DNA of 62,867 nucleotides, filler included, from Bipalium vagum (lineage: Eukaryota), in NCBI GenBank assembly GCA_037834085.1. It is 3 parts of 3 records of this genome, joined end to end, with 100 filler letters (N's around TTAATTAATTAA, not from the genome) between each part and the next. Parts side by side here need not be neighbours in the genome. Positions count along the whole stretch, not along the records: positions 40,689 to 62,867 come from JBBMKC010225884.1; 2 more parts are not named here. One strand, 5' to 3'. This document shows positions 48,301-50,402 of the stretch, piece after piece. The notes under the pieces were generated by a model. It had not been told where the DNA came from and ran no database searches. It worked only from the letters and a program-made list of their open reading frames with translations. The translations under genes were made by a program, and so were the position numbers. Every line of letters begins with the position of its first letter. The first letter of the stretch is position 1.

Positions 48301-50402
48301 GAGTGCCTAATTTCCGGTCTCAACGATCTGATGGTTGAACAATCAGGGTTTGTTGATCGATCAACGGAAGGATTCCAATCATTGAAAGAGCTAGCAAGGC
48401 GGCTGAATCTCAGTTTCGGTCTCGATCTGATGAAAATCCGCGAGGCTATGATGGAGCTGCACAAAATGGCCATCGATACCGTACTCAACACAATGTCTGT
48501 CACGGGGCCGTCGCGACCGCCATCCAATCTTCTTTGTCTGGAACTGGCCGCCGAATTCAGCAACAAATTGATCGGTTCCGACAAGAAATTCATTTTGGAA
48601 AGCATCAACAAAGCGTTTCCCAATCCTGCCGATAACGAGGGTTGGATTTCGTTGTACACCTATCGAATGAGTCTCGATCCGGACGCAATGGACAACGCCA
48701 GCACCCACAATGACAGCTGTCATAGTGGAACGGGATCATCAGCTCAGAACATCATCACTCCTCAGCCTCGCTCTCGTGGTAGACCTAAGAAAATAAAAGA
48801 CCCCGCCACCTCCATTGTACAGCAACAACGACAACAACAATCGCAGCACCAGCAGCGTCCTCCAGTCCACAGTACCGCTATCAAGAAAAGAAAATTGAAT
48901 CACTCTATCAATTCAGTTTCCGTTGTTACCGCCGCACATCCTTCCATAAACGTTTCTTCAATTGACGGTGCCGGCGGAGGAGGCGGAGGAGCTCCCAATA
49001 TGCATATTAGTGAAGAACCGTCTGCTCAAACTATTCCCCGAGTATCCATTCGTGGAAGAATATTGAAAAATAGGTATATATTAGAAAACTAGCACTTCAA
49101 ATTTTTATTGATTTTTTGTATAGTTGATTTAAATTTAAATTCATTGAACTAATTGTATTACTATTAATTGATTAATTATTAGTTATCGGTTTAATAATTA
49201 AACAAGTTATTGGTTTTTTAAACATTGTAATTAATCCATATAATAAATGAATTTTTTATGAATCGCAAAAAAGTGAATTACTAAACACAGTCTGACTTTA
49301 TATAACACTATATAACACTGATTATTAATCAATATAAAATTATTTTTATTTCGTGCGAAGAAAGTGGATTATCGATTTTTGTGGTTTTTAAAAAATCAAT
49401 ATATCTTGAGAAGCTTAGAAAAAATCTTTCACTTTTTTCGATTTTCTTTCCCCTTTTCTGTGGATGAGAAAAAATGTGCCCAATGGATTTTTTGAATCGA
49501 TACCTACCACCATGCGATGTGTCGTACCTAATTAATTGTACTTAATCTCGTTTTTTTCTGCGGTGTATTCCTCTCTTCTAGGTTATCATTATTATTACTG
49601 TCACTGAAACGAAAGAGGGCGTGCTCGCGCTCAAAGCTTTGTTGTAAATTTGTCCGGAGGCTTGTCACTTGTGAAGTGTTGAGTACACGCGATCGGTTCA
49701 GCGAGGGCAGTCAAAGAGATGGAGAAAGAGAGATTACTCTCAATTTCGTCTTGTCGGTTGGTAAGACAGAAAAATTCTCTTTGATCACCCCGCCCCAAAT
49801 GACCGTGACAAAAGTAAATGGACTGTTGTAATGTTCGGCAAAATTTGCCTTTTTACATCGGATTGATTTACAATTTTATTTCGATGTTTTCATCTTCTGT
49901 TCCTCATTTTCATTCCATTTGATACATTATTTAAGTTCTTTCTATTTTTTCACACAATCTCTCACTTCTCTTTTATTTTATTGATTTTGCACTTTAAATC
50001 TTATTGATTAAATATTTTAAGCAAATCATGAAATTTTATCGATTATTATTAATTCTTTTGTATGTGCAATTTTTATTCTTTATTGATTTTTATCAATAAT
50101 AAATAATCGATTTTCAATTTTTAATGTGTAATAAAAATGAAGAGATTTTTAATTTTTCATTAAAACTAGAAATTTCTTCCATGAAATGTTTTGAAATATA
50201 GATTTTATAGAAAATCTCTGATTACATGGATTTTTAAAAATATTTTATTGTTATCTGTTTTGCTTATTGATTTTAAATTTGGTTATCGATTTATTGTTAT
50301 TGAAAATCGATATCTATCGCTCTTTCGTCATTTAATCAATAATTGATCTATTTTTTCAGAATCAGTTTATCTTTATCAGACCAGGCCTCTGATAGCCAAT
50401 GA
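42316..50402 (+). CDS. STAG1/2: Cohesin subunit SA/STAG (Scc3), ~1316 aa; exons 42316-42435, 42523-42640, 42704-42895, 44836-47318, 48079-49073, 50360-50402
   Basis: STAG domain LTDSQVRAFRHTGTLAAMKL, SCD VFVHRYRD..EIR..FLDDSYLKYVGW, FFIESELHEHA, KIEELHNRR, KELARR. All five introns GT-AG with matching phases. First three and last exons inferred from splice phase only. Confidence 0.93.
49480..49860 (+). other. GC-rich structured block in the last STAG intron; candidate cassette exon 49582-49760 or intronic ncRNA
   Basis: Pyrimidine tract + tag|, open frame in phase with the upstream exon, G|gtaaga donor; multiple hand-identified helices. Confidence 0.55.

Follow-up and report, generated by a model that had tools for sequence, protein, structure and literature searches.

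In MAPT exon 10 and SMN2 exon 7, the donor is paired in a simple local hairpin. STAG2 exon 30b is an in-frame exon near the C-terminus of the protein. The human form of this exon is reported as a low-inclusion alternative exon that is controlled by TDP-43 binding downstream of it, according to the accessible text of the source (PMC4605304). A branched arrangement is described for MALT1 exon 7, where, in the part of the account that is accessible, a 'hammerhead-like' fold holds the 5' splice site in one of its stem-loops and limits the access of U1 (PMC9348792).

The locus considered here belongs to a cohesin SA/STAG gene of Bipalium vagum. It was analysed within a window of 62,867 nt, which is the whole stretch of DNA examined (three parts of assembly GCA_037834085.1 joined by filler letters) and along which all positions are counted. 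A GC-rich island behind the last large coding exon may represent an unannotated alternative SA exon at 49582-49760, either cassette or terminal, whose donor would be masked by a predicted three-way junction. This reading, built on splice-signal scores and folding models, has in our view about an even chance of being correct. Like MALT1 exon 7, the candidate would be a cassette exon running into a branched fold with the donor in a stem-loop, although no sequence homology is claimed. The fold of MALT1 exon 7 has been probed by SHAPE, is conserved, and is tied to hnRNP U/L in the accessible description, whereas the SA fold is a prediction. Furthermore, MALT1 exon 7 measures 33 nt in that description, whereas the SA candidate measures 179 nt and would shift the frame of the last exon. 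MAPT exon 10 and SMN2 exon 7 likewise differ in having simple hairpins, while the SA donor hairpin forms one arm of a 93-nt three-way junction. With STAG2 exon 30b, as far as its accessible description goes, the candidate shares the property of being an alternative exon of a cohesin SA gene that alters the protein isoform. The accessible text on exon 30b presents TDP-43 control and describes no fold, and homology between this exon and the SA candidate was not found.

If the reading is true, a core chromosome-cohesion gene of a poorly sampled flatworm lineage would contain an overlooked exon and have alternative C-termini. It would also be a compact case in which a branched RNA fold gates a splice donor, as is already known in principle from MALT1 exon 7. 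More generally, a well-folding GC island in an intron may be an exon instead of a small RNA. A literature search, weak on subscription papers, found no published element of this kind for flatworm SA genes.

The 3' end of the SA gene and its GC island

The cohesin SA/STAG gene occupies ~42.1-50.5 kb of the window on the plus strand, and the Pfam families STAG, SCD and HEAT_SCC3-SA all match above their cut-offs. These matches sit on the exon upstream of the SA exon 48079-49073. Most of the protein is carried by a single exon of 2.48 kb (44836-47318, +). This exon contains a glycine-rich insertion near 46280-46380, which is missing from the assembly protein P0001, a close SA relative with 89-95% identity (95% over the searched region). 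The closest named relatives are trematode proteins with 73-75% identity. In a 20-row SA tree, the window sequence and P0001 form a long branch inside a well-supported clade with neodermatans, planarians being left out. On the grounds of these relatives and this tree, a mite origin of the DNA was rejected. The coding part of the gene ends with the following features:

48079-49073 (+): final large coding exon of the cohesin SA/STAG gene, with a phase-2 candidate donor (AG/GTATAT) at its 3' end
49090-49092 (+): in-frame TAG, reached when the 49074 donor is unused

The ORF 48079-49092 (+) spans this exon and shows 41-53% identity to flatworm SA proteins in tblastn. The putative SA donor AG/GTATAT at 49073/74 was placed from the sequence. 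An earlier reading of the same DNA, the first-pass annotation, had located the element of interest in the last intron of the gene. This location should be regarded as provisional, as the SA frame also runs on to the TAG at 49090-49092 and the alignments to homologues stop by ~49038. An AATAAA at 49242, 5' of the GC island, could mark a message end ahead of the island. In schistosomatids, predicted SA isoforms carry two to three different short tails that diverge from one C-terminal point. This branching, which is taken from annotated peptides, would fit a phase-2 last intron with alternative ends.

All motifs listed in the first-pass annotation are present at their positions. Together with further words located here, the island contains:

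49597 (+): ACTGTC, 5' arm of the closing stem of the long 5' hairpin proposed in the first-pass annotation
49706 (+): GGCAGT, 3' arm of the same closing stem
49604 and 49697 (+): CTGAA and TTCAG, stem arms of the long hairpin
49619 and 49681 (+): GCGTGCTC and GAGTACACGC, stem arms of the long hairpin
49711 and 49776 (+): TCAAAGAGA and TCTCTTTGA, closing stem of the junction
49728 and 49737 (+): GAGAG and CTCTC, junction hairpin
49748 and 49760 (+): GTCTTGTC and GGTAAGAC, junction hairpin with the candidate donor
49731 (+): AGATTA, the word proposed earlier as H-like
49766, 49808 and 49855 (+): ACA, located in the sequence
49837-49857 (+): small hairpin GGCAAAATTTGCC, then T5 and ACA, from sequence and folds

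The description of the region as GC-rich is borne out, with a GC content of 46% at 49597-49830 versus 28% at 49075-50499. Matched by eye, each of the window's 12 other islands with a GC content of at least 44% overlaps either SA, another ORF or a remnant of a transposon ORF. A multi-copy origin would have spoken against a genuine element; no second copy of the island was found in the window, and one contig was found in one sequencing run, which is not recorded as RNA and is possibly the source of the window. In this run, 49617-49818 lies under one contig at 80% likeness with a flat depth of 22.5, which equals the depth of an SA coding exon. At a likeness of at least 80% the island is single copy among the contigs of the run, bearing in mind that contigs show presence and not absence. 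Neither variant letters nor a credible joint were observed across the island in this run.

Predicted fold and comparison with known RNA families

The element had been described as highly structured over its whole length. This was not confirmed, as 49480-49860 reaches a z of only -0.81 and 22 of 100 shuffles fold as well; the narrower span 49590-49840 gives a z of -1.12. The long 5' hairpin is no better than chance (z -0.07), and its ACTGTC/GGCAGT closing stem has a pair probability of 0.00 in all three fold windows. The folding models provide the following structures:

49599-49604 and 49805-49810 (+): possible outer stem TGTCAC/GTGACA, pair probability 0.33-0.98
49701-49793 (+): predicted three-way-junction domain, -36 kcal/mol, reaching from the 3' end of the exon 33 nt into the following intron
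49748-49767 (+): hairpin GTCTTGTC-GGTT-GGTAAGAC, with the candidate donor as its 3' arm, pair probability 0.63-0.95

The outer stem attains its values of 0.33-0.98 in two of the three fold windows and drops to 0 in the widest. The three-way junction holds as a prediction, with pair probabilities of 0.86-1.0 in the closing stem and of 0.63-0.95 in both hairpins. When its ends are picked by hand (49700-49796, -36 kcal/mol), the z is -3.92, none of 200 shuffles folds as well, and the MFE structure equals the centroid. As the best local structure with a span of up to 100 nt, the junction is matched by 3/200 and 1/200 plus-strand shuffles; with a span of up to 80 nt, 18/200 shuffles match it. The junction window (z -3.06) ranks first among 31 GC-matched windows, followed by a window with -1.69. 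The comparison with shuffled controls, by which the first-pass annotation proposed to judge the fold, is split: the junction beats the shuffles, while the whole element and the 5' hairpin do not.

It had also been argued that G-U pairs favour the sense strand. This applies to the GTCTTGTC/GGTAAGAC hairpin, which needs G-U pairs and is complete on the plus strand only, but not to the z values, which are equal or lower on the minus strand in several windows. The junction on the minus strand is matched by 3/200 and 1/200 shuffles, similar to the plus strand. With such similar scores on both strands, the strand cannot be fixed from the fold alone.

For the bases of the donor (49761-67), an unpaired probability of 0.00-0.17 is predicted, and the models expect the exon to form ~39 pairs with the 100 nt of intron that follow it. 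Such exon-intron pairing would explain, on the folding model, why the GC content stays high ~70-90 nt beyond the donor. Of 16 GGTAAG sites, the donor is the most costly to open, at 6.5 kcal/mol, and four others require 5.7-6.0 kcal/mol. One real SA donor has a similar opening cost of 5.8-6.7 kcal/mol. As the cost is close to that of other donors, masking is predicted but not exceptional.

The first-pass annotation had suggested that the element might be an H/ACA- or scaRNA-like RNA. Box H/ACA RNAs have a hairpin-hinge-hairpin-tail structure with the H box in the hinge, as laid out in the accessible part of the source (PMC5207380). In line with the features given there, the island contains ANANNA and ACA words and is located within a gene (PMC5207380). 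In contrast to these RNAs as described there, it does not have the hairpin-hinge-hairpin-tail layout, and AGATTA lies outside a hinge. This word is located in a hairpin arm and loop, and placing it in a hinge would cost 21.5-23.8 kcal/mol. A search of Rfam returned no match at the gathering threshold over the window, and the seven weak matches obtained with E<=10 for 49050-50550 do not include one over the junction. Because AGATTA is not in a hinge and Rfam is blank, the H/ACA reading fails. Another pair of words, AAATGA at 49797 and ACA at 49855, is the best of 20 H/ACA combinations at 1.9 kcal/mol, and AAATGA follows the branched domain. The corresponding tail layout was rejected, since the 52 nt before ACA 49855 form two small hairpins and not a single 3' hairpin of 55-70 nt. 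In two of the three fold windows, the models pair the ACA at 49808 within the outer stem. The scaRNA CAB box (ugAG) was likewise dismissed, as the junction loops ATTA and GGTT carry none; TGAG/CGAG words occur outside the junction loops at 49680 and 49702 (+), the latter within a stem.

The succession of a three-way junction, AAATGA and a later ACA resembles the 3' domain of animal telomerase RNA (CR4/5 and H/ACA), judging from the accessible text of the source, in which protostome telomerase RNAs are reported without the vertebrate CR4/5 (PMC8480181). Unlike telomerase RNA, the island has neither a TTAGGG template nor a pseudoknot. Specifically, no permutation of CCCTAA of at least 7 nt was found on the plus strand of 48900-50500. 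The TTAGGG repeat was assumed from schistosomes, whose telomere repeat is given as the 'same as many other metazoans' in the accessible part of the report (PMC2770079). An H-type pseudoknot with stems of at least 5 bp was not found in 49480-49870 under stem and loop limits of our own.

RNase P/MRP was rejected because no Rfam match was obtained at E<=10. Compared by eye with the consensus (CR-I and CR-V with P4, and P2/CR-IV), the island has a bulged CGGTTCA/TGACCG pairing but lacks both the conserved GGAA/GAAA and the 3' strand of P2. A hammerhead ribozyme of the schistosome SINE type was not supported either, with no CTGANGA on either strand of 49450-49950. The half of the island with AATTTGT at 49647 (+) folds like shuffles, and Rfam is blank there. 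This word resembles the Sm sites of U7 and U1. The stretch AATTTGTCCGGAGGCTT at 49633-49690 (+) is reminiscent of the U7 Sm site and the part following it; the next hairpin is weak, and Rfam is blank. Likenesses to 7SK, SRP, vault, Y, U11/U12, U3, snR30 and SECIS were dropped, as they had been judged by eye against consensus sequences and Rfam supports none of them. ARAGORN reported no genes. A survey of schistosomes did not recover telomerase, vault or Y RNAs and gave its MRP and 7SK candidates as tentative, according to its accessible text (PMC2770079); none of the features of such RNAs that were looked for here was seen in the island.

The candidate exon, its predicted products and rival explanations

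The splice signals that delimit the candidate exon are:

49539-49581 (+): candidate 3' splice site, with TACTTAAT at 49539-46, a pyrimidine tract and CTAG/G; 23 pyrimidines in 29 nt
49758-49766 (+): candidate 5' splice site TTG/GTAAGA; the intron would begin at 49761
49582-49760 (+): candidate hidden exon of 179 nt with 45% GC, whose one open phase is that dictated by the 49074 donor

The acceptor at 49581 is placed at the 5' edge of the GC island. It is preceded by the branch-point-like TACTTAAT, and the 40 nt before it contain no other AG. Its 23 pyrimidines out of 29 are reached by 22 of the 2422 YAG sites on both strands of the window. No acceptor in 49074-50500 is better; the scores of the five known SA acceptors are 14-20. 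The donor TTG/GTAAGA forms a duplex of -8.0 kcal/mol with the 5' end of U1, which places it in the top 54 of 5680 GT sites in the window; each of the six SA donors that were tested is weaker (-1.5 to -5.8 kcal/mol). With a strong acceptor at the 5' edge of the island and a strong donor buried in the junction hairpin, most of the island is probably exon.

The splice sites were scored with simple schemes that were devised after the sites had been seen. Under strict cut-offs, the two strands of the window contain three acceptor-donor pairs, of which only 49582-49760 both measures at least 90 nt and has an open frame. Relaxed cut-offs yield two pairs of at least 90 nt with an open frame. The second of these, 4048-3870, was considered as a positive control and dropped, as it is unlike a real exon. 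The strict scan recovered none of the known SA exons and, with 4048-3870 set aside, there is consequently no positive control. When 49074-50498 was block-shuffled with its composition preserved, an in-phase open candidate at least as good (30-400 nt) appeared in 29, 25 and 16 of 1000 trials, and when at least 100 nt were required, in 13 of 1500. With the cut-offs fixed at the observed values, none of 3000 block shuffles gave such a candidate. Given the post hoc scores and the absence of known SA exons under the strict cut-offs, the exon signals are suggestive and not proof.

The 82-codon frame stays open in its phase in 355 of 40000 dinucleotide shuffles, and in any of the six frames in 4933 of 40000. 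Its codon signal is neutral, as 54% of the open shuffles score as well, and the codon score is close to that of SA's own disordered tail (-0.122 versus -0.125). GC by codon position (0.41/0.44/0.48) is unlike that of the training genes. The exon peptide has no match among 1.84 billion representative proteins or among 107 longer candidates, belongs to no Pfam family, and has no Atlas match. It shows no likeness to the tails of 72 listed SA-cluster proteins, nearly all from flatworms and some of them tail-less fragments. None of 748 candidates proved to be a relative of the SA tail. Of the 166 metagenome stretches matched by the last SA exon, none was confirmed, and a metagenome scan with the junction pattern led to two loci, both in unrelated microbial coding DNA without similarity to the region.

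The junction fold would set how often the exon is used. When the junction is formed, U1 would be kept off GTAAGA, and the exon would be skipped or entered without using its donor. The exon would be included once the hairpin is opened, be it by a helicase, by an RNA-binding protein or by rapid binding of U1. Two further features define the ends of the predicted products:

49829-49831 (+): TAA closing the frame when the exon is entered without use of its donor (83-residue tail)
50499-50548 (+): candidate terminal exon with the acceptor GTTGCAG/ at 50498; TGA 50527-29 on skipping, TAA 50546-48 on inclusion

Counted after the Asn codon 49069-71, skipping to the 50499 exon would give a tail of 10 residues ending at TGA 50527-29. 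Inclusion would bring the 50499 exon into another frame and yield a tail of 76 residues that ends at TAA 50546-48. Entry without use of the donor would produce 83 residues up to TAA 49829-31, and reading through the 49074 donor six residues up to TAG 49090. On these models all four stops are in terminal exons, and altered C-terminal tails of SA are thus predicted, not decay. The exon at 50499 is a possible assignment, and other acceptors between 50169 and 51273 could serve instead.

The first-pass annotation had left the choice between a non-coding RNA and a cis-regulatory splicing structure. While the H/ACA or scaRNA option fails, the splicing option has gained a strong acceptor and a fold-buried donor, and on the models a splicing switch controlled by structure is more probable than a separate small RNA. 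An unlikely, though by no means negligible, alternative is a pseudo-exon without function or a fragment of a transposon or gene too old to be recognised, so that the splice-like signals, the open frame and the fold of the island would be coincidental or vestigial; the fold may then merely silence a cryptic donor. The lack of a protein homologue for the exon peptide, the neutral codon signal, the several transposon remnants in the window and the shuffle-like folding of the whole element are all in line with this, as is the fact that each single test, chosen post hoc, reaches only p ~0.005-0.03. It is less easily reconciled with the coincidence of four features at one place, namely the acceptor at the island edge, the phase, the donor and the fold, or with the single copy at a likeness of at least 80% in the contigs of the run, which show presence and not absence. 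There is a rather small chance that the island gives rise to a discrete, stable non-coding RNA outside the described families, extending over ~49595-49815 or ending at ~49855-60, either cut from the intron or overlapping the exon, with the junction as a protein-binding core. The junction is a real fold outlier, the possible TGTCAC/GTGACA outer stem would close the island, a hairpin followed by T5 stands at its end, and exposing AAATGA 49797 together with ACA 49855 takes only 1.9 kcal/mol, the lowest figure among 20 H/ACA combinations. Moreover, several flatworm RNAs were not found in schistosomes (telomerase RNA, vault, Y; MRP and 7SK uncertain) in the accessible text of the survey (PMC2770079). 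Such an RNA has no Rfam match, however, its 5' half is unstructured relative to shuffles, and neither the H/ACA anatomy, given the two small hairpins before ACA 49855, nor a TTAGGG template or an H-type pseudoknot is present. It would also leave the in-phase acceptor, the donor and the open frame unexplained.

The same acceptor could serve a different purpose. Parasitic flatworms have operons, and acceptors are common to cis- and trans-splicing, as stated in the accessible part of the source (PMC12582326). On this basis, 49581 would be a spliced-leader trans-splice site, and a second cistron, a small ORF or a non-coding RNA, would follow SA, which would be polyadenylated near AATAAA 49242. The presence of this AATAAA, an ATG with purine context at 49719, and an Echinococcus gene model joining SA to RPS19 (P0172) are compatible with such an arrangement, for which we see a slim chance. 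TTCTAG fits the reported UUNYAG motif only loosely, the frame from the leader AUG ends after ~21 codons, and the window contains no RPS19. Furthermore, the longest plus-strand ORF starting in 49832-55700 has 90 codons and is AT-rich, and the sole open frame of the exon fits the phase of the SA donor. An extended form of the exon reading, in which a switch of the flatworm lineage uses the 93-nt junction to pick among up to four SA tails and additionally releases a stable structured RNA, belonging to no described family, with its 5' end made at the 49581 acceptor, is a long shot.

Other features of the window

A possible remnant of RPS19 in the frame of the island was rejected as a chance likeness (BLASTP E 3.2, shuffle p 0.47). 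The SA-RPS19 fusion model P0172 of Echinococcus granulosus hints at an operon or close neighbours in tapeworms. The candidate terminal exon contains the box C-like words TGTGATG..CTGATGA at 50526-50541 (+), with a weak partial match to SNORD49 (E 3.8); no CTGA was seen by eye in the 120 nt that follow.

Remnants of mobile elements occur in other parts of the window. Broken reverse-transcriptase ORFs of a non-LTR retrotransposon are located at 12490-15780 (+) (Pfam RVT_1, E 3e-12 and 2e-10). Fragmented LTR-retrotransposon-like ORFs occupy 33100-39000 (-), with RVT_1 at 34039-34470 (E 2e-19) and integrase- and gag-like pieces by eye. A fragment resembling a mariner transposase by eye lies at 1762-2124 (-) and has a weak HTH_32 match (E 0.13). 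Pieces of a gene for a repeat-containing protein are found at 3372-6066 (-), where the one exon tested has no Pfam match. The long ORF at 58864-60759 (-) resembles mitochondrial Hsp70. At 55790-56663 (-), there is a small multi-exon gene that is U-box protein-like by eye, one exon of which has a weak Pfam match.
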